Shown here piece by piece: positions 1 through 6,831 of a DNA stretch of 6,831 nucleotides; the stretch's first letter is position 1; every line of letters starts with the position of its first letter. The notes beneath the pieces were generated by a model, which ran no database searches, was not told the DNA's origin, and worked only from the letters and a program-made list of their open reading frames with translations. Where the stretch lies: positions 1 through 6,831 of the IMG/VR virus record IMGVR_UViG_2565956635_000006; one strand, written 5' to 3'. Origin of the DNA: a virus. Taxonomy: Duplodnaviria > Heunggongvirae > Uroviricota > Caudoviricetes. Made by a program: the position numbers and the translations under genes.

Positions 1-516
1 ATGAAATTTAAAAAATGTCTTCTGCCTGTGGCAATGTTAGCGTCATTCACTCTGGCAGGATGCCAGTCAAATGCTGATGATCATGCTGCCGATGTTTATC
101 AAACCGATCAACTGAATACCAAACAAGAAACTAAAACCGTTAATATTATTTCCATTCTTCCCGCAAAAGTTGCCGTAGACAACGCCCAAAATAAACGGAA
201 CGCACAAGCCTTCGGCGCGCTTATTGGCGCTGTCGCTGGCGGTGTTATCGGCCACAACGTCGGGTCTGGCAGCAATTCCGGAACGACGGCAGGTGCAGTT
301 GGCGGCGGAGCTGTAGGCGCGGCAGCGGGTTCGATGGTGAATGATAAAACCTTAGTGGAAGGTGTTTCTTTAACATATAAGGAAGGCACCAAAGTGTATA
401 CCTCCACCCAGGTGGGTAAAGAGTGCCAGTTTACGACAGGTTTAGCCGTTGTTATTACCACGACGTATAACGAAACGCGTATTCAGCCAAATACCAAATG
501 TCCTGAAAAGAGCTAA
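1..516 (+). CDS. Outer-membrane lipoprotein with glycine-zipper domain (YcfJ / Rick_17kDa_Anti-like), 171 aa
   Basis: ATG at window position 1, stop TAA 514-516. Signal peptide MKFKKCLLPVAMLASFTLAG|C with lipobox LAGC; residue after the Cys is Gln, not Asp, so outer-membrane sorting is expected. Gly/Ala zipper GALIGAVAGGVIGHNVGSGS...GAVGGGAVGAAAGS resembles the GAVAGGVIGH motif of YcfJ-type lipoproteins (from memory). Upstream RBS lies outside the window. Confidence 0.7.
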   Translation: MKFKKCLLPVAMLASFTLAGCQSNADDHAADVYQTDQLNTKQETKTVNIISILPAKVAVDNAQNKRNAQAFGALIGAVAGGVIGHNVGSGSNSGTTAGAVGGGAVGAAAGSMVNDKTLVEGVSLTYKEGTKVYTSTQVGKECQFTTGLAVVITTTYNETRIQPNTKCPEKS

Positions 517-531
517 TAATCAGGAGGAGTC

Positions 532-1071
532 ATGAAGAAAGTTTTTCTTTGCGCCATCTTAGCCTCCTTAAGCTATCCGGCTATCGCCTCATCATTGCAG
601 GATCAACTCTCGGCTGTCGCAGAAGCGGAACAGCAAGGTAAAAATGAAGAGCAAAGGCAGCATGACGAATGGGTCGCGGAGCGCAACAGGGAAATCCAGC
701 AAGAGAAGCAACGTCGCGCAAACGCCCAGGCCGCGGCTAATAAAAGAGCGGCAACGGCAGCGGCGAATAAGAAAGCTCGTCAGGATAAACTGGACGCCGA
801 AGCCACTGCGGACAAAAAACGCGATCAAAGTTATGAAGATGAGCTACGCAGCTTAGAGATTCAGAAACAAAAACTGGCGCTGGCGAAAGAAGAAGCCCGC
901 GTCAAGCGCGAAAACGAATTTATCGATCAGGAACTGAAGCACAAAGCTGCGCAAACCGATGTGGTGCAATCTGAAGCTGACGCAAACAGAAATATGACTG
1001 AAGGCGGTCGCGATCTGATGAAAAGCGTGGGTAAAGCAGAAGAGAACAAATCGGACAGCTGGTTTAACTAA
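532..1071 (+). CDS. Secreted/periplasmic coiled-coil protein, Ala/Lys/Glu/Gln-rich (TolA domain II-like composition), 179 aa
   Basis: Consensus SD AGGAGG at 522-527, 4 nt before ATG 532; only 15 nt after the upstream stop, so it is operonic with the lipoprotein. Sec signal peptide MKKVFLCAILASLSYPAIA|SS (AxA cleavage site). The mature part is highly charged with AAANK(R/K)A-type repeats. Family unknown. Confidence 0.65.
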   Translation: MKKVFLCAILASLSYPAIASSLQDQLSAVAEAEQQGKNEEQRQHDEWVAERNREIQQEKQRRANAQAAANKRAATAAANKKARQDKLDAEATADKKRDQSYEDELRSLEIQKQKLALAKEEARVKRENEFIDQELKHKAAQTDVVQSEADANRNMTEGGRDLMKSVGKAEENKSDSWFN

Positions 1072-1109
1072 GCGATGTCAGTAACTTCAAGCCTATGATT
1101 CGTGAGTAT

Positions 1110-1140
1110 AAAAAACCCTCTGTAGTAACAGAGGGTTTTG
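1110..1140. terminator. Bidirectional rho-independent terminator shared by the convergent plus-strand operon and the minus-strand lysis operon
   Basis: Perfect inverted repeat aaaaccctctg (1112-1122) / cagagggtttt (1129-1139) with a 6-nt loop tagtaa. The GC core stem CCCTCTG/CAGAGGG is flanked by an A-tract on one side and a T-tract on the other, so the hairpin is followed by a U-run in both transcripts (UUUUG on plus, UUUUUUAUAC on minus). It lies 41 nt after the stop of the 532-1071 gene and 128 nt after the Rz stop. Confidence 0.65.
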
Positions 1141-1266
1141 TTCATTCATAGTGCAGGGTTCAAATCATTCCCACTCAATTATTTACGACATACATAACCA
1201 ATTGACTGATAACAACTTTCTGCAGCCTGATTTTCACCGTACCGTTTTATATACCGTCACCAAAAA

Positions 1267-1764
1267 TCAGTACCACGATTTTTGCTTCTTCAGTGAATCG
1301 TATTGCTGTTCGCAGGATTCTCCTGCAATCCGATACTTTTCAGCCTCAGCTGCTGTTGCGTTGTAAACTCGGTTGCTTTCTTCAAGCATGTCGGCGAGCA
1401 CACCGATGACCTTGCTGGCTGGCGTGCCAGTGGGGAAAGATCCGGTATAGTGTTCGGCGAGTCGCTTGGTTTTGTCAAGCTCGGCGCGCAGGCTGTCAGC
1501 AGCGGCATTAGCATGCTCAGCATCAACACGCGCCACATCGATACGGGATTGTGCTTCACGTTCAATTTGTGTTTTCTCCTGATCACGTTGTGACCTGGCC
1601 TTATCATCAGCCTGTTTCTGATCTTCCTGTGCCTGCGCATACCCGGCGTCGTACTGACGACTGCCGTGTGCATTCCAGGCTACAACTCCTGATATGACCA
1701 GAACAGCAAGCATCGCCATGATAACCAACTGTTTCCTGTATGCTTTTGCGAATGCCCAGATCAT
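1267..1764 (-). CDS. Rz-like i-spanin (inner-membrane spanin subunit), 165 aa
   Basis: ATG at 1764-1762 overlaps the endolysin stop TGA at 1763-1761 (ATGA overlap, translational coupling). Type II membrane topology: basic N-terminus [12 protein letters not shown] followed by one [20 protein letters not shown], then a long charged coiled-coil periplasmic domain rich in Q/E/R/D/A. Last gene of the lysis cassette and carries an embedded lipoprotein ORF. Confidence 0.75.
1290..1538 (-). CDS. Rz1-like o-spanin (outer-membrane lipoprotein) embedded in the +1 frame of the i-spanin gene, about 82 aa precursor
   Basis: Fully embedded alternative frame inside 1267-1764. Encodes [16 protein letters not shown]|C with lipobox LTAC followed by a Pro/Ser-rich mature region ([24 protein letters not shown]...) with extra Cys, the hallmark of Rz1 proteins. 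Start is uncertain: in-frame ATGs at 1538, 1523, 1514 and 1508, none with a strong SD. Confidence 0.5.
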   Translation of the reverse strand: MWRVLMLSMLMPLLTACAPSLTKPSDSPNTIPDLSPLARQPARSSVCSPTCLKKATEFTTQQQLRLKSIGLQENPANSNTIH

Positions 1765-2390
1765 ACCGCCAGCACCTTACTGGCAGTGATGTATCGCGCG
1801 CGCCGGTCATCAATGCCGTTCCGGCCACCATTGATAAGCAGAGTTACACGTGCAATATCTCCGGTATACTTCATGCAGCCTTTGCTGGAGAAGAACCACG
1901 CCGCGCTACGAGCCGCGTATTCGTCCTGCGCCAGCAGTTCAGGACTCTCCAGCAGGTCAACCTTAAGACCGTTTCCACAGTCACGATAGTTATTCAAACC
2001 GGTAATCTGGATAAGTCCGCGCCCACGGTAGTTCCAGCCATCGCCAGGAGCATTGTTACCCATGCGTTTGCTGTACACCAGATTGGCAATCGCTCTCTGG
2101 CGCTCAGGTGGCAATGGTGGTTCGCCTGCGCGTCGCCCCAATGCGTTGGCCTGTCCCTGAGTGAGACGCCCAGCCCGAACAAAGTTAGCCAGTCCGCTGA
2201 CGCTGTAGTTGAAATTTTCCTGCAACCGGGTGAAACCTCCAGACTCATGCCCGACCTGAGCAATAAACATTGCCTGATCTTCTGGTTTGCTGATACCAAA
2301 CTCTTTCATCGCAGAAGTTATATGCGAGAACCAGCGTGCGGCCAGCGCCTCGCTAATACCAGCAGCTCGCTGGAATTGTTTAATCTCCAT
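1761..2390 (-). CDS. Phage endolysin, glycoside hydrolase family 19 (chitinase-fold lysozyme), 209 aa
   Basis: Start ATG at 2390-2388 preceded by SD GAGGT (minus-strand context TCGAGGTCTAAACATGGAG). The 264-aa ORF in the track is a 5' over-extension; the upstream part overlaps the holin-like gene in another frame. Protein begins [20 protein letters not shown] and contains [10 protein letters not shown]...LQENFNYS with two Glu (positions 49 and 58) plus [12 protein letters not shown], consistent with GH19 phage endolysins of the SPN1S type (from memory). GC is about 58-67% in hand-counted 60-nt blocks. Confidence 0.85.
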
Positions 2391-2688
2391 GTTTAGACCT
2401 CGATACTTTGAAAATTTGAACGACGTTACCGCGCGTTTTAATAACCGCAGCGAGCATGACAGCGTTGATAATGACCTCAGATAAATCCACAGCCATTGGC
2501 GTGCGGAACCAGATTGCATAGGCGACACGAACAGGAATACTGGCCGCAGCAACAATCAGGAAATAAGCAAGCCATCCTCCCCACCTTCGGTGTTGAGAGC
2601 CGTTACGCCGGAATGTGACAACGCGAATTGCTATGCCAGTGCAAATAACTGCATTGGTGATAAGCAAAAAAAACTCATGCGTTACCAT
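2380..2688 (-). CDS. Holin-like / lysis-associated small membrane protein, 102 aa
   Basis: ATG at 2688-2686 with SD GGAG 8 nt upstream (GGGGAGAAAAGACGATG). Overlaps the upstream gene by 14 nt and the endolysin start by 11 nt. Two hydrophobic segments ([19 protein letters not shown]; [23 protein letters not shown]) separated by a basic loop, and a charged C-terminal tail KVSRSKHGD, which is holin-like architecture. Position immediately 5' of the endolysin. Confidence 0.6.
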
Positions 2689-3079
2689 CGTCTTTTCTCC
2701 CCGGAATTAACTCGCGTGGATTATCGGAACGGTGATAGAGCCATATACCAATACGCACAGCGACAATTGCTGACACGAATGCGCCTGCAGAGAAAACAAT
2801 CCCTTTTTCAAAAGAGTCCTGCGTGATGGTAGGGATCAGGCTGGCTATGCCGATAAGAATTGATGCTGCTGGTTTGTAAAAGAGAAGGCCGCAAAGAAAG
2901 CTGAGCATCGACAGGAGCACCCGGCGACGGATGGGGTACTCTACTGCAGAGGTAACAAAAATTACCGCTCCAGCCAAAGCACCCAAAGCAACCTCAGGAG
3001 GAACTCCTGCTATCACCGCCGCCAGAGAACTCATGCTAAGCCACTGATTTAAAGTTTCACTGGTTAGTTGAGCTGACAT
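2675..3079 (-). CDS. Holin-like membrane protein (3-4 predicted TM segments, charged C-terminal tail), 134 aa
   Basis: Start taken at ATG 3079-3077 (MSAQLTSETLNQ...) with upstream GGTGG 5 nt away; the track's start at 3088 is a GTG three codons upstream in the same frame. Hydrophobic segments LAAVIAGVPPEVALGALAGAVIFV, LLSMLSFLCGLLFY, ILIGIASLIPTI, AGAFVSAIVAVRIGIWLY, then charged tail [19 protein letters not shown]. First gene of the tightly overlapped lysis cassette. Confidence 0.55.
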   Translation of the reverse strand: MSAQLTSETLNQWLSMSSLAAVIAGVPPEVALGALAGAVIFVTSAVEYPIRRRVLLSMLSFLCGLLFYKPAASILIGIASLIPTITQDSFEKGIVFSAGAFVSAIVAVRIGIWLYHRSDNPRELIPGRKDDGNA

Positions 3080-3253
3080 GTTTTCCACCGTTTATATGCA
3101 TAACAACCTCCTGAACAGTAAAGCATTACGCATGATAAACCATTTATGGTTTTTTGTTACTTTAACATCGTCAATTCCCTGTTTTTCATGCCGAGAATAA
3201 AGCTCACCTTTTACATGACTCTGAAGAAACAAACAGTGAAGATCAGGTTGAAT

Positions 3254-3276
3254 ACCGCACCATTTAATGGCGCGGT
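3254..3276 (-). other. Stem-loop just after the stop of the small membrane gene (possible weak terminator or RNA stability element)
   Basis: Minus-strand ACCGCGCCAT-TAA-ATGGTGCGGT: 10-bp stem with one G-U wobble and a 3-nt loop, 6 nt after the TGA at 3284-3282. No U-tract follows, so it is not a canonical intrinsic terminator. Confidence 0.25.
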
Positions 3277-3281
3277 AGCAG

Positions 3282-3566
3282 TCAAATAGAGAAATAAACA
3301 CAAAAACAAAAAACAACAGGAACAGCAAAATCCAACAGACTTCCCACATCCCACACGCGTGGATCAAAACCTCCCCACCACGGCATGTTGATGCGTTTCC
3401 CTTTCCCAAACTTTTCTATCCAGCGATATTCTGCCTGGGTGTGTTCACGCGCAATGAAGAACGTACAACCGGCTATCGCACCGTAAGCCCAGTTTCCGGT
3501 AGAAAGGCCAACCAGTATCTGCGCAATAACCGCGCATACTGCATGTGTTATTGGTGTTGTATCCAT
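3282..3566 (-). CDS. Small integral membrane protein of unknown function (2 predicted TM), 94 aa, immediately downstream of the tailspike
   Basis: Start ATG 3566-3564 with SD AAGGA (AAAAGGATAAAAATATG); the track's start at 3602 abuts the tailspike stop and lacks an SD. TM1 AVCAVIAQILVGLSTGNWAYGAIAGCTFFIA, basic/aromatic loop REHTQAEYRWIEKFGKGKRINMPWWGGFDPRVW, TM2 LLDFAVPVVFCFCVYFSI. A weak hairpin follows the stop (see 3254-3276). Confidence 0.5.
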   Translation of the reverse strand: MDTTPITHAVCAVIAQILVGLSTGNWAYGAIAGCTFFIAREHTQAEYRWIEKFGKGKRINMPWWGGFDPRVWDVGSLLDFAVPVVFCFCVYFSI

Positions 3567-3602
3567 ATTTTTATCCTTTTTTAATTTAGCAAATTGATAC
3601 AA

Positions 3603-6377
3603 TTACACTCCTGATACTTCAATAGATAGTTGAATCTTATTTGGCATCTTGTTGCTTAAATATATGGTTGCAAAGTCAAACGAAATATTTAAGTTATTTT
3701 CATCACCATCATTATCTGAAAGAACTCCGGTTTTCAATACAACATTTTGCTTATTAATTTCTTTTAAAGGAGAAAAATCAGATCGGTCACCACGATGAAT
3801 AATAACACCAACTGCAATTACCCCATGAATATCAAGTATGTCGTGCATATCAAGGCGAACACATGGTACGTATCCACCAACAAGGATACTTGTAGATTTG
3901 TTGGCTTCAAGTGTTATTAGATATTTTCCGTCTGGTTGAACTATTGTTCCTGCTATTCCATCTGGCGTGTTGAACATACCGCAGTATCTGTATCCTGCTC
4001 CAACAGGAACAATTCTGTTACCGCCAAGATCATGGAAATTTCGAACAATTATTGCACCAGGAACAGATGAATAAACCATTACTGCCTCTGTTTGCCCTGA
4101 TACAGAGTCTGATGTTTCTGGGTTCGCCATGCATAAATTACCACCAAAATAAATATTTTGGATTAGAGGGGTGAGGCCATCATTAACCTCAAAACGTAAA
4201 AAGCCCTTGAGAACAGTCCTTGCGGTATTATTCTTAATAACAACAGGAAGTTCTTTATAGTAAGAGTTTCTGTCTGTCTGTGCCAGAGTTGTTTCAATAA
4301 AAACAAGAGGTCTGTGATTACGTTGAGTTGCATTCACAGGTTTGTACCTCAAGTTGTATGGCAAAGACATCTCAGTAAAACCATCAATATAATTACAGTT
4401 CTGAATCGTGAACCCACCACCACTATATCTTACAAAAAAAGGAGCCGGGCCGCTAAATCCCCTGACGTTCATTCCATCATACACTTCATTTAATCCGCGT
4501 ATTACACCAGCATAATACAAATTGACTGAATTGCCGCCTGTAAAAGTTGTTTCGTATGATGGGCCGTGTCCACCGCAACATGAATTTCTTGTATCGCCAT
4601 CAGGGAAAAATTTAACTCCATCATATGCAGTTCCACCACCCATCATCGTTGGATTTATAATGTTATTATACAGTGATACCATTTGAGTCCCGCTTACATC
4701 AAGCCCCCTCCTGCAAGCAAATGCTGTCATATCCACGACTGTGCAATAGCTGCTATTGTATATTTCAACACCATAACCAGTGCCGTTTGTTAAATCATAT
4801 GCACGGTTTGAGTATTCAATATATGGTTCTATTATTTTCGTTCTGTAGCTTGACTCAAGAAAAATTCCAGTTTCTGAAAAGCCGATTAGTTTTATTCCTT
4901 CTATATGCATATCAACAGCGCCATCTATCACAAGACCACGGAACCCCAAATCACCAGGAGATGCGTTCTGCGTGACAGGTCTTTCAAAATTGAAATCACC
5001 GACAATTCTGCCGTAGCATGGTTTTCTTTTATATATATTTGCCTTTCTTGTGATTTTAAACTCGTCTCCAACAGATGGTTTAAACGGGAATGGTCCCTGA
5101 GCATATTCAAATTTTGCTGTTTTAGTGTCGTAATCCCAATGAGTTATGTATCTTGATATTCCGGCGTTAGCTCCGGTGACACCTGTTACTTTTACCTGAT
5201 TGTATTGTTTTGTTAATGTTGCATCATTACCAAATGAGAATTCACCTCCGGATACAGATGCTGTTACGGTCGTTGAGTAATCATTGCTCGCAGAGTAGAA
5301 AAAATAAAATGCACCTGATATCTCCGCTTTTTTTGTTGCATTATCAAAAGCAGTAACAACATGCATTTCACCTTCACAAGCCTGTCCTCTATTATCTGTC
5401 TGAATTAAGCGATTGCCATGAATCATAATTATATCGCCTGCATCAACAGAATATGCTGAGTTAATTGATATTGATGTGTCACCAGGATTTATTGTTGAAT
5501 TATAGTCAATTGGCGTGGCATCTCCACCTTCGAGTCTTATGAAATAATCATCAATCCAGTTTGGACCAAGAGGCTCTTTTGCGGTTGACTTTAAGACAAC
5601 CTTGCCATCAGCTACCCAGTCATAGTTATAATTATCCCCGCCGCATTTTATGCGGCTAATCAAATACACACCAGAATCCCACTTCAGGCGTTTTCCGTTA
5701 GATGCGCAGTAAATGATGGCATTTGTTATTGCGTCTGTATCGTCAGTAATGCCATCCCCTTTTGCACCAAAATCGCGAACATTGACGATATCCCGCATCT
5801 TATCCTGGAACGTTCGATATACTGCCCCAAAACCATACTGAATAAACCAACCAAAACCACCAACAACCCCGGCGATTGCAGCATCGACATAATTACGCAT
5901 TGAGCGATTATTTACAGCATCCTGCTCAAGTGATGGATCTGCAAGGTTAGAAATTCTGTTTTGCTTTGCATCGTAATATTTTGCAAGCAAAGATGGTTTC
6001 ATCAATGCACGTCTGAACCACCCAAAACATCGCTGGATCAGCATCGTCAGGTAGTCAAATGCATCCTCATGAACTTCGGGGAAAAATTTTCCCTGATTGC
6101 GAAGATCAGTCTCCTGCACCACATCAAGCACACGCTCTATCGTGATTTTCCAGCCAGCAGCAAGCGGCGACGGAAGAACAACAGAACCGCCACTATAAGT
6201 GCCCGCCCCAGTTACCGTATAACCGGTATCCAGAACCAATTCTGTTACGTTACCGTTCAGGTCAGACACCTGAACAACCAGGTCTGTTTTTTTGAAAATG
6301 CGGAAGGTATACGGAAATGATGTCGTAACGCCGTTACCTGTGTATTCGTTGTGGTCAACTTCGGTTGAGACCGTCAT
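3603..6377 (-). CDS. Phage tailspike protein: conserved N-terminal particle-binding domain plus right-handed beta-helix (pectate-lyase-like) polysaccharide depolymerase / receptor-binding domain, 924 aa
   Basis: ATG 6377-6375 with SD GGAG 7 nt upstream (TCTGGAGATTTAACATG); stop TAA 3605-3603. N-terminus MTVSTEVDHNEYTGNGVTTSFPYTFRIFKKTDLVVQV...ETDLRNQGKFFPEVHEDAFDYLTMLIQR matches, from memory, the conserved head-binding domain of epsilon15/phiV10-type tailspikes. Residues about 199-222 (NVRDFGAKGDGITDDTDAITNAI) are the classic pectate-lyase-superfamily motif. Marked GC drop in the C-terminal two thirds. Confidence 0.9.
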   Translation of the reverse strand: MTVSTEVDHNEYTGNGVTTSFPYTFRIFKKTDLVVQVSDLNGNVTELVLDTGYTVTGAGTYSGGSVVLPSPLAAGWKITIERVLDVVQETDLRNQGKFFPEVHEDAFDYLTMLIQRCFGWFRRALMKPSLLAKYYDAKQNRISNLADPSLEQDAVNNRSMRNYVDAAIAGVVGGFGWFIQYGFGAVYRTFQDKMRDIVNVRDFGAKGDGITDDTDAITNAIIYCASNGKRLKWDSGVYLISRIKCGGDNYNYDWVADGKVVLKSTAKEPLGPNWIDDYFIRLEGGDATPIDYNSTINPGDTSISINSAYSVDAGDIIMIHGNRLIQTDNRGQACEGEMHVVTAFDNATKKAEISGAFYFFYSASNDYSTTVTASVSGGEFSFGNDATLTKQYNQVKVTGVTGANAGISRYITHWDYDTKTAKFEYAQGPFPFKPSVGDEFKITRKANIYKRKPCYGRIVGDFNFERPVTQNASPGDLGFRGLVIDGAVDMHIEGIKLIGFSETGIFLESSYRTKIIEPYIEYSNRAYDLTNGTGYGVEIYNSSYCTVVDMTAFACRRGLDVSGTQMVSLYNNIINPTMMGGGTAYDGVKFFPDGDTRNSCCGGHGPSYETTFTGGNSVNLYYAGVIRGLNEVYDGMNVRGFSGPAPFFVRYSGGGFTIQNCNYIDGFTEMSLPYNLRYKPVNATQRNHRPLVFIETTLAQTDRNSYYKELPVVIKNNTARTVLKGFLRFEVNDGLTPLIQNIYFGGNLCMANPETSDSVSGQTEAVMVYSSVPGAIIVRNFHDLGGNRIVPVGAGYRYCGMFNTPDGIAGTIVQPDGKYLITLEANKSTSILVGGYVPCVRLDMHDILDIHGVIAVGVIIHRGDRSDFSPLKEINKQNVVLKTGVLSDNDGDENNLNISFDFATIYLSNKMPNKIQLSIEVSGV

Positions 6378-6480
6378 GTTAAATCTCCAGATAGTCGCAG
6401 CACCCGTTGCGCCGCATATCTGGTTATTCTATTACCTGAAAAACCACATATGGATAGAAATACTGTGAATATAAATAGAT

Positions 6481-6497
6481 ATTACCTTTTAGGTAAT
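6481..6497. promoter_or_regulatory. Perfect palindrome ATTACCT-TTT-AGGTAAT, candidate operator for a phage-encoded dimeric regulator
   Basis: 7-bp inverted arms with a 3-nt spacer in the divergent intergenic region. The half-site ATTACCT recurs at 6431-6437. Function is inferred from symmetry only. Confidence 0.3.
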
Positions 6498-6533
6498 TTG
6501 CAAAACGTGCTGGATAGCAAACAAATTATTTGA

Positions 6534-6553
6534 TACTGTATAAATATACAGTT
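6534..6553. promoter_or_regulatory. LexA binding site (SOS box) overlapping the promoter region of the downstream plus-strand small ORF
   Basis: TACTGTATAAATATACAGTT is CTGT-N8-ACAG with an AT-rich spacer and matches the E. coli consensus TACTGTATATATATACAGTA at 18 of 20 positions. It lies 20 bp upstream of ATG 6574 and overlaps a TATAAAT -10-like hexamer (6539-6545), with TTGATA (6530-6535) just upstream. Confidence 0.7.
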
Positions 6554-6573
6554 ATTGCATGGAGAAGATTAAG

Positions 6574-6831
6574 ATGCAGCAGTATCACTATCCACTGGAA
6601 GACGGATTTACCGAAAGGATTCACACGCCGGGAGGCGTCAAGTCACTGGTGGAGGGATCGCACTTGATGAAATTACTCCGGGATCTCGATAAGGATGGAT
6701 TTAATGTCGATGGCCCACTTGCCGAACTGACTGCACTGATTAACTACGTCACCAGCTCACAGATGTCTATGCAGGATCTGCAAACACATCTCGACTATTG
6801 TGCCGAACAATTACGAAAACAAACCACATAA
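6574..6831 (+). CDS. Small acidic soluble protein of unknown family, predicted SOS/LexA-regulated (85 aa; 90 aa if started at 6559)
   Basis: SD GGAG at 6561-6564, 9 nt before ATG 6574; the alternative ATG at 6559 has no SD. Stop TAA 6829-6831 is the last triplet of the window. No TM or signal peptide; rich in D/E. I recognise no family; the C-terminal ...LRKQTT weakly echoes P22 Mnt (...LYKKTT) but the N-terminus lacks a ribbon-helix-helix motif. Confidence 0.55.
   Translation: MQQYHYPLEDGFTERIHTPGGVKSLVEGSHLMKLLRDLDKDGFNVDGPLAELTALINYVTSSQMSMQDLQTHLDYCAEQLRKQTT

Follow-up and report, generated by a model that had tools for sequence, protein, structure and literature searches.

In the Uetakevirus-type phages epsilon15 and phiV10, known conversion genes are located in the slot between the tailspike gene and the holin genes. 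In epsilon15, this slot contains gp22, a 66-aa 'alpha-polymerase inhibitor' with two transmembrane (TM) segments, together with the Wzy-like polymerase gp21; in phiV10, it is occupied by Oac. The Iap protein of Pseudomonas phage D3 is an analogue of the epsilon15 gp22 polymerase inhibitor, and P22 and Sf6 carry gtrABC or oac between the tailspike gene and the prophage end. Here, the corresponding slot was analyzed in a 6,831-nt stretch of viral DNA (IMG/VR record IMGVR_UViG_2565956635_000006, positions 1 to 6,831), referred to as the window, which is the end of an epsilon15/phiV10-like (Uetakevirus) prophage. The slot contains a small gene of the PHROG 1443 family encoding a 94-aa membrane protein. 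In its phage relatives, this gene is an 'RBP trailer', i.e., the next, and usually the last, gene on the strand of a receptor-binding protein (RBP) gene. The coordinates of all features are listed in Table 1.

A preliminary description of the window, made from the letters of the DNA alone, had correctly placed small O-antigen-altering proteins behind the tailspike in phages of the epsilon15 type. Like gp22, the window gene encodes a small hydrophobic protein in the tailspike-to-holin slot of a Uetakevirus. The gp22 gene, however, lies on the opposite strand behind an annotated terminator and is paired with a polymerase gene, whereas the window gene is co-directional with the tailspike gene, follows it after 36 nt and has no polymerase gene anywhere in the window. 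A relationship between the two proteins was rejected (hhalign probability 0.2%, 5 aligned columns). The likeness to phiV10 Oac and to the gtrABC/oac modules of the P22/Sf6 type consists in a membrane-protein cargo just beyond the tailspike gene. These modules encode large, serotype-specific multi-TM enzymes (acyltransferase-3, GtrA/B/C), with the phiV10 gene in antisense orientation. The window protein, in contrast, has 94 aa, belongs to no Pfam family and is not bound to one type of receptor-binding domain (RBD).

Accessory envelope proteins encoded next to a receptor-binding gene are also known from T5 (Llp) and from phi80, N15 and HK022 (Cor). Llp and Cor are FhuA-specific outer-membrane lipoproteins; the window protein lacks a lipobox and is not linked to a particular receptor, and the prediction for it is an integral protein of the inner membrane. 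A position directly downstream of a fiber gene, co-directional and co-transferred with the receptor-binding end, is shared with lambda Tfa, Mu U and P2 G. The latter are soluble Caudo_TAP-type proteins, whereas the window protein is hydrophobic and stays invariant while the upstream RBDs vary, and the PHROG 1443 family also occurs without phage context. A role as tail-fiber assembly protein or chaperone (Caudo_TAP/Tfa) was rejected in view of the three hydrophobic helices, the missing Pfam match and the conservation behind unrelated RBDs. The favored functional analogy is with T4 Imm, P22 SieA and HK97 gp15, small phage inner-membrane proteins of superinfection exclusion that act independently of an outer-membrane receptor (for SieA, see PMC10883804). 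No sequence relation to Imm, SieA or gp15 was detected in Pfam, PHROGs or PADLOC. Furthermore, prophages express SieA and gp15, whereas the homologs in Escherichia coli LF82 are not expressed in lysogeny broth (LB), and the PHROG 1443 family, unlike Imm, SieA and gp15, has syntenic chromosomal members in non-prophage contexts. The small gene resembles RBP-adjacent accessory genes (conversion genes, Cor/Llp, Tfa, Imm/SieA-like) by position or architecture only.

The linkage to RBP genes was quantified in IMG/VR, where the small gene is found in 433 viral contigs. An RBP module on the same strand and within 4.5 kb upstream is present in 79 of the 80 closest contigs: 56 carry lambdoid (phage-21-type) Stf, 16 Uetakevirus and seven P22-like tailspikes. 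The preceding open reading frame (ORF) ends at most 100 nt from the small gene in 79/80 (median gap 12 nt), and in 25/80 the predicted prophage ends at most 30 nt after it. Proteins that are at least 75% identical to the window protein follow RBPs of unrelated specificity, including lambdoid side fibers. In Uetakevirus phiv142-3, the family member (orf5) lies behind the tail-fiber gene (orf6). In lambdoid phage 21 it follows the side tail fiber and a 92-aa acidic protein, in P22-like phage Gally it is located between tailspike and int, and in the LF82 lambdoids Perceval and Tritos it lies behind RBP genes. In E. coli, the most common context is found in lambdoid prophages, where J, Lom and Stf are followed by a gene for 89/93 aa, a Peptidase_S74 fiber gene and then the family member, with genes on the opposite strand beyond it. 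A Comamonas prophage carries the gene behind a gpJ-like central fiber, and in a Salmonella contig it is flanked by two tailspikes. In two betaproteobacterial loci (Table 1), it is found between an Mtd-sized gene and the bAvd plus reverse-transcriptase genes of a diversity-generating retroelement; the 383-aa Mtd-sized gene matches PHROG 2889, and the gaps at the two loci are 10 and 4 nt. In the lambdoid prophages located at prfC, which represent the most common E. coli context, the opposite strand encodes a Pin-like invertase (Resolvase + HTH_7) about 230 nt downstream of the small gene, with no alternative fiber segment visible between the two.

For phiv142-3, deletion of orf6 was reported to cause iron-acquisition and serum-growth phenotypes that were restored by orf6 complementation; the lack of polar effects on downstream genes was given as 'data not shown', and orf5 was not among the genes tested (PMC7724020).

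The small gene is also a site at which phage genomes are joined. The tailspike of the window shares 94% identity with that of phiv142-3, confined to aa 1-221 (the anchor), and has essentially only a short motif in common with the tailspikes that precede the Gally and Salmonella members. Its aa 184-924, however, are 98% identical to aa 143-883 of the tailspike of a P22-like prophage in E. coli YP3 (locus L009, 5287-7935). The head-binding N-terminus of the YP3 tailspike differs, and the next and last gene of that prophage is the small gene. The switch point between the window and YP3 tailspikes adjoins a conserved DFGAKGDGITDDT motif. The RBD of the window was found in 10 complete E. coli genomes, and the same 10 match a query of window positions 3200-3700 over at least 76% of its length. 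In IMG/VR, both window-type and phiv142-3-type RBDs occur on Uetakevirus as well as on P22-like anchors. A three-way DNA alignment of the window, phiv142-3 and the P22-like YP3 relative located the downstream boundary of these exchanges. The window is the same as the YP3 relative from the tailspike to about codon 80 of the small gene. It is also the same as phiv142-3, beginning at about codon 24 and including the 3' end and the following hairpin; the spacer and the start of the holin gene are about 90% identical. The two mosaic junctions lie at the edges of a core of about codons 24-80, and third-position identity is 0.82 in codons 20-72 compared to 0.69 in the flanks.

Virulent Kuttervirus vB_SalA_KFSST3 (Salmonella, Ackermannviridae) contains a decayed, unannotated copy directly behind a tailspike gene (locus L099, 6001-6170), with an in-frame stop after C34 and a truncation past EHTQAEYRWI. 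This copy looks like the scar of a cassette import. Conserved motifs flanking RBDs were proposed as recombination hotspots in lytic phages, and Lederberg- and Uetakeviruses were reported to share little sequence on the downstream side of the RBP gene (PMC10408124). The small gene is a conserved flank of this kind in a subset of Lederberg- and Uetakeviruses, and its core acts as the downstream homology arm, or crossover point, for the exchange of RBD cassettes between phage genera.

The ORF is a genuine gene, far beyond chance expectation. The protein matches the PHROG 1443 hidden Markov model with E = 2.9e-54 (residues 1-94 to profile positions 1-94 of 97), an identical 94-aa coding sequence is present in RefSeq (WP_024179080.1), and dN/dS values of 0.18-0.33 against eight homologs point to purifying selection. 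The gap behind the tailspike stop, the Shine-Dalgarno site of the gene and the A+T-rich spacer of about 190 bp in front of the lysis genes agree with the preliminary description; its label 'orphan' does not hold, as the gene is a member of a very large family. A TTG-initiated reading from position 3602 would yield 106 aa, but the ATG start is favored because the N-terminus M-D-x-[TS]-P is conserved in the family. A consensus scan of the 36-nt gap found neither promoter-like nor terminator-like sites, and the nearest promoter-like call upstream is a weak match within the 3' end of the tailspike gene. Since the small gene closely trails the RBP gene on the same strand, it is most likely part of the late RBP message and not an autonomous moron expressed in lysogens.

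Expression was assessed from published RNA-seq data of E. coli LF82, which has three homologs (PMC9928086; Table 1, S1 and S4 therein). In LB lysogens, GALLYPH_17, PERCE_24 and TRITO_22 have 7-23 normalized reads per replicate, and the values given for Gally are a median background of 15.6 and a cut-off for morons of 78 (PMC9928086). None of the three is included in Table 1 of that study, which comprises genes at least 5-fold over prophage background in LB lysogens, and Gally is 'devoid of any moron' according to its authors (PMC9928086). The expression in lysogens above prophage background that marks a moron was therefore found for none of the three LF82 homologs. In macrophages, GALLYPH_17 (log2FC 4.9) and PERCE_24 (log2FC 3.0) rise together with the upstream RBP genes (PMC9928086). 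The main text of an LF82 CRISPR interference (CRISPRi) preprint does not mention the small gene.

The close family, comprising members from Escherichia, Salmonella, Aeromonas and Comamonas, shares 57-87% identity with the window protein. Within it, D2, P5, H8, Q16, G20, G24, W26, G29 and C34 are invariant or nearly so, as are the run R40-E-H-T-Q-A-E-Y-R-W-I50, the loop residues G54, G56, R58, N60-M-P62, W64-G-G-F-D68, R70 and W72, and S76, D79, P83 and C87 in the C-terminal part. Among members with 30-59% identity, H8, R40, E41, Q44, A45, E46, W72 and P83 are kept in at least 90% of the sequences. Such conservation is unusual for a small phage membrane protein.

An AlphaFold2 (AF2) monomer model (pLDDT 93.3) comprises helices at residues 4-23, 26-52 and 74-93. 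The first two helices pack into a tight hairpin, and helix 3 comes after a loop of 33 residues rich in polar and aromatic residues. The preliminary description of a 94-aa membrane protein therefore stands; the two TM segments assigned to it do not, as a three-helix inner-membrane protein is predicted. Across the family, loop 40-73 contains a mean of 5.5 K+R, with almost none in either terminal tail or in the turn that connects helices 1 and 2. Because this loop is rich in K+R, it is probably cytoplasmic according to the positive-inside rule, and an N-in, C-out topology follows from this as the likely one. In the AF2 geometry, H8 is located opposite E41 within the hairpin and D79 at a similar depth in helix 3, which suggests a cluster of His, Glu and Asp plus Arg at the cytoplasmic membrane interface.

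Searches with the window protein gave no match in Pfam, NCBIfam or the PDB (sequence profiles), no defense system in PADLOC, and no fold match at E <= 0.001 with Foldseek against PDB and BFVD; Pfam hits of 58 distant members were scattered noise only. The profile search against Pfam and PDB that the preliminary description suggested as a check hence assigned neither a family nor a function. All database sources examined label the protein as hypothetical, except for one stray UniRef label 'Lgt' on an Aeromonas member. Relatedness to prolipoprotein diacylglyceryl transferase (Lgt) was rejected (hhalign probability 0.03%, with a comparison sequence verified against PDB 5azb). Likewise, the Tai tail-assembly-inhibition systems are unrelated and are not membrane proteins. 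The gene itself is thus already catalogued as encoding a hypothetical protein; no paper with the core motif was found, and neither the literature nor database names yielded a description of a function, of the RBP linkage across phages or of a role at mosaic junctions.

PHROG 1443 (unknown function) has 441 representatives at 50% identity and 583 clusters at the 90% identity level; among 150 representatives listed, all are stand-alone proteins of 58-146 aa. The DNA of the small gene is present in 1828 of 5426 complete E. coli genomes, at a median of two and up to seven places per genome. Intact copies were also found in Aeromonas jumbo phages, with no annotated lysogeny genes in the stretch examined. 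The family is not restricted to phages, as it also exists as a stand-alone chromosomal gene in Aeromonas and alphaproteobacteria. Several Aeromonas species share a syntenic copy between the pirin gene and a RIO1 kinase gene, and a copy follows ligA in three high-G+C loci of a Sphingomonas species and two alphaproteobacterial metagenome-assembled genomes (MAGs). An all-against-all BLAST of the neighbors at 58 species-representative genome loci, with genes called by a seeded caller with GC3 frame filter, revealed no recurrent partner gene, and batch PHROG and Pfam scans of the neighbors likewise found no universal partner. Because no partner recurs in these 58 loci, the protein probably acts alone on something common to Proteobacteria. 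Two candidates for a partner were rejected: phrog_1361 with the Peptidase_S74 fiber protein is restricted to lambdoid prophages, and phrog_3108 is found within two genes of a family member in just two loci. The latter protein (about 160 aa, unknown function, no Pfam match) is encoded in an Aeromonas phage (L004, 2499-2993) and a Comamonas prophage (L005, 6970-7518).

We are highly confident of the descriptive part of these results, i.e., the gene, its family, conservation, RBP linkage and orientation, the junctions and the expression of three homologs. The explanation that we tentatively favor, which is possible rather than probable as a complete package, is that of an RBP-linked, late, autonomous inner-membrane accessory protein with a receptor-independent benefit. 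The polar residues H8, R40-E41, Q44, E46, W72 and D79 and the loop R58/N60-M-P62/W64-G-G-F-D68/R70 would be placed at the cytoplasmic interface, where the protein would act alone and bind or modify a membrane component conserved across Proteobacteria. This target could be an ion, a lipid-phosphate carrier or a conserved protein of the inner membrane. The benefit would consist in a receptor-independent effect in the producing cell late in infection; our preferred guess is a block of secondary-phage genome entry at the inner membrane, and the alternative is the shutdown of an envelope process. Serotype-specific O-antigen chemistry and hole formation are both unlikely. A broader version, in which a bacterial three-helix inner-membrane protein with an H/E/D-R polar site at the cytoplasmic interface was captured by phages as a new class of accessory protein, is unlikely. 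As a universal RBP trailer of sipho-, podo- and myoviruses, it would turn off a conserved inner-membrane function late in infection, such as the route of genome entry or a step of a lipid carrier, and its DNA would be a portable homology arm for RBD swaps across genera.

Several points speak against an inner-membrane accessory protein of this kind. Its topology, autonomy, target and benefit are what we infer from the data above, and the target derives from neither experiment nor homology. The topology was derived from the positive-inside rule and an AF2 monomer; the annotators of phage 21 reported two TM domains with N-in/C-in orientation (TMHMM) and a 29-aa signal sequence (SignalP). In distant taxa, a large same-strand ORF is present upstream in just 18 of the 58 genome loci, so that RBP linkage is a property of the phage branch and not of the whole family. 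TRITO_22 is silent and not co-induced with the upstream fiber genes (PMC9928086), and co-transcription with the RBP gene is therefore not universal. The Gally copy is preceded by a 240-nt gap and is expressed above the tailspike in all conditions except one LB replicate; it may therefore have its own promoter. Finally, a superinfection block that acts only late has little obvious benefit, and the syntenic chromosomal homologs suit a housekeeping biochemical role better than exclusion.

An improbable alternative is a generic inhibitor or modifier of surface-glycan assembly, acting on a conserved Und-P-dependent step (Wzx, Wzy, WaaL, WecA). The O-antigen or a different receptor glycan would disappear or change, and adsorption to the cell, or of progeny phage, would be prevented. 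This would fit the slot shared with Oac of phiV10 and with the Wzy-like polymerase and 66-aa inhibitor of epsilon15, and likewise the P22-like prophages, which place the family member between tailspike and prophage end. Most enterobacterial podovirus copies follow O-antigen-specific tailspikes, and the Arg- and Trp-rich interfacial motifs of such a small membrane protein could bind lipid phosphate. However, gp22 is dissimilar, the missing Pfam match includes glycan-modifying families, and the small gene is co-directional with the late genes, unlike the antisense conversion genes known from this slot. Moreover, the 56 lambdoid copies among the closest 80 lie behind side fibers and others behind gpJ-type fibers or an Mtd-sized gene, intact copies exist in Aeromonas jumbo phages, and all three measured copies are at background in LB lysogens. 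O-antigen polymerization and Gtr/Oac modification are periplasmic, whereas the polar cluster is predicted to be cytoplasmic. The epsilon15-type inhibitor of O-antigen assembly that would protect lysogens, as put forward in the preliminary description, is not supported either: it conflicts with the dissimilar gp22 and the antisense conversion genes and is further disfavored by the mixed RBP specificities, the LB expression and the predicted side of the polar cluster. A role in the lysis module is very improbable; the protein would then target the membrane or the proton-motive force as an additional holin, as an antiholin or by regulating when lysis occurs. The protein is small, has three hydrophobic helices and is probably produced late, and its gene directly precedes two holin-like genes, an endolysin gene and a spanin gene in the window. 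Besides the window, lysis genes adjoin the family member in four betaproteobacterial prophages, where it lies ahead of holin and lysozyme (L049), lysozyme (L029 and L035) or an unidentified 132-aa gene and a GH108 endolysin (L040). In lambdoid and P22-like phages, in contrast, it is located at the tail-fiber end, with no lysis genes within the 4-5 kb examined on either side. This agrees with the earlier view that the gene is not part of the overlapped lysis block, from which it is separated in the window by a hairpin and 193 nt. The window protein matches no holin family in Pfam or PHROGs, while the two downstream genes match Phage_holin_8 and Phage_holin_3_7; a single one of the 58 distant members has a sub-threshold Phage_holin_8 match (E = 0.0036). 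Holins are poorly conserved, whereas many polar residues are invariant here and 59-68% identity is kept across bacterial orders. The C-terminus coincides with helix 3 (C-terminal tails average 3 residues across the family) and lacks a charged tail, and the chromosomal copies lie amid housekeeping genes. The extra holin or antiholin that had been considered as an alternative is accordingly weak.

A serious rival, doubtful on its own and partly compatible with the inner-membrane accessory protein, is a hitch-hiking 'linker' that RBP genes retain chiefly as downstream homology for RBD swaps, with an inherited housekeeping membrane function (ion, lipid or redox homeostasis) that adds little for the phage. 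Mosaic junctions inside the small gene, one RBD on both Uetakevirus and P22-like anchors with the small gene downstream, the higher third-position identity of the core, the decayed copy behind a virulent Kuttervirus tailspike and the silence of TRITO_22 are all in line with it, and RBD-flanking conserved motifs have already been proposed as recombination hotspots (PMC10408124). However, homology arms need no intact ORF, and the low dN/dS together with intact frames in hundreds of prophages shows selection on the protein itself. The excess of third-position conservation is also only modest.

Roughly one in three complete E. coli genomes contains DNA of the small gene, and several prophages of one genome frequently carry it. 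It occupies the 3' flank of the RBP gene, the most actively exchanged spot of phage genomes. Host-range engineering by RBD swap will often carry it along or cut through it. Should the protein prevent secondary infection or inactivate an envelope process, interactions among phages and between phage and host would have a very common determinant that has been overlooked. Should the gene serve mainly as a recombination anchor, this would help to explain how identical RBDs move among Uetakevirus, P22-like and Kuttervirus backbones. Phage 21 (gene 24), mEp460 and the LF82 prophages are tractable carriers.

Table 1 Features of the window and of two related retroelement loci. Positions refer to the window unless a locus is named
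Feature	Position	Strand	Remarks
Tailspike	6377..3603	-	924 aa
Tailspike N-terminal anchor, Uetakevirus-type (aa 1-183)	5829..6377	-	Upstream limit of the cassette that is exchanged
Tailspike receptor-binding part (aa 184-924)	3606..5828	-	Exchanged between Uetakevirus and P22-like prophages jointly with the small gene's 5' part
Tailspike stop TAA	3605-3603	-	Sequence
Intergenic gap from tailspike stop to start codon, 36 nt	3567..3602	-	Sequence
AAGGA Shine-Dalgarno-like site	3574..3578	-	7 nt before ATG; read from sequence
Small gene (PHROG 1443 family), coding sequence	3566..3282	-	94 aa; sequence, PHROG profile, AF2, dN/dS
Small-gene start ATG	3566-3564	-	Sequence
Conserved core, about codons 24-80 (W26...REHTQAEYRWI...NMPWWGGFD...D79)	3327..3497	-	Identical in three phage backbones
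Small-gene stop TGA	3284-3282	-	Sequence
A+T-rich spacer before lysis cassette, 193 nt	3089..3281	-	37-40% G+C
11-bp stem-loop UACCGCGCCAU-UAA-AUGGUGCGGUA	3253..3277	-	Starts 5 nt past the small-gene stop
First holin-like gene, Phage_holin_8 match	3088..2675	-	GTG start
Second holin-like gene, Phage_holin_3_7 match	2688..2380	-
GH19 endolysin	about 2390..1761	-
Rz-type spanin	1764..1267	-
Host gene yfgI (DUF5384)	532..1071	+	Annotation in complete E. coli genome
Host gene yfgH (glycine-zipper lipoprotein)	1..516	+	Annotation in complete E. coli genome
Retroelement loci of Comamonas nitrativorans and Pigmentiphaga humi	L036/L038, about 4785-8051		Mtd-sized gene of 383 or 370 aa

The spacer between the small gene and the lysis cassette holds the hairpin, a promoter-like site GTAACA-17-TATCAT (3160-3132) and a GGAGG (3111-3107). 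The spacer of phiv142-3 has a 19-nt insertion and is otherwise about 90% identical. The hairpin has no U tract and was not called by the terminator consensus scan; its stem is kept in phiv142-3 with a different loop. It could be a weak terminator or a processing site, and an RNase III site is annotated at the corresponding position ahead of the holin-like gene of epsilon15. The promoter-like site on the minus strand includes the palindrome AACCATAAATGGTT, is conserved in phiv142-3 and could be a promoter or a regulator-binding site for the lysis cassette. Downstream of the strong GGAGG, on the same strand, an ATG at 3101 begins a 14-codon ORF, MHINGGKHVSSTNQ*, in a different frame. The short ORF overlaps the start of the first holin-like gene (GTG 3088 / ATG 3079), and the sequence (3057-3111) is nearly identical in phiv142-3, with one mismatch. 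It may be involved in translational coupling or holin control.

All late genes of the window prophage are encoded on the minus strand. The two plus-strand genes at the other end were named from the annotation of a complete E. coli genome (KC-Dl-1) whose prophage is 100% identical to window positions 3200-3700. As they are host genes and not phage genes, the prophage end lies between about 1072 and 1266. PHROGs holds yfgH as phrog_1277 ('DNA methyltransferase') and yfgI as phrog_1094; these entries look like a carry-over error at prophage boundaries that has spread into the RefSeq record of phage TL-2011b. The genome with this prophage, that of E. coli KC-Dl-1, has extra genes between yfgI and the spanin gene (L008, 6927-9671), namely an AAA ATPase gene, an integrase fragment and a response-regulator gene, which the window lacks; the window therefore stems from another, related strain. 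An ORF in another frame within the Rz spanin gene (1290-1673, minus strand) has an LLTAC lipobox-like motif. It fits the expectation for an Rz1 o-spanin, and epsilon15 and phiV10 have such embedded genes annotated.

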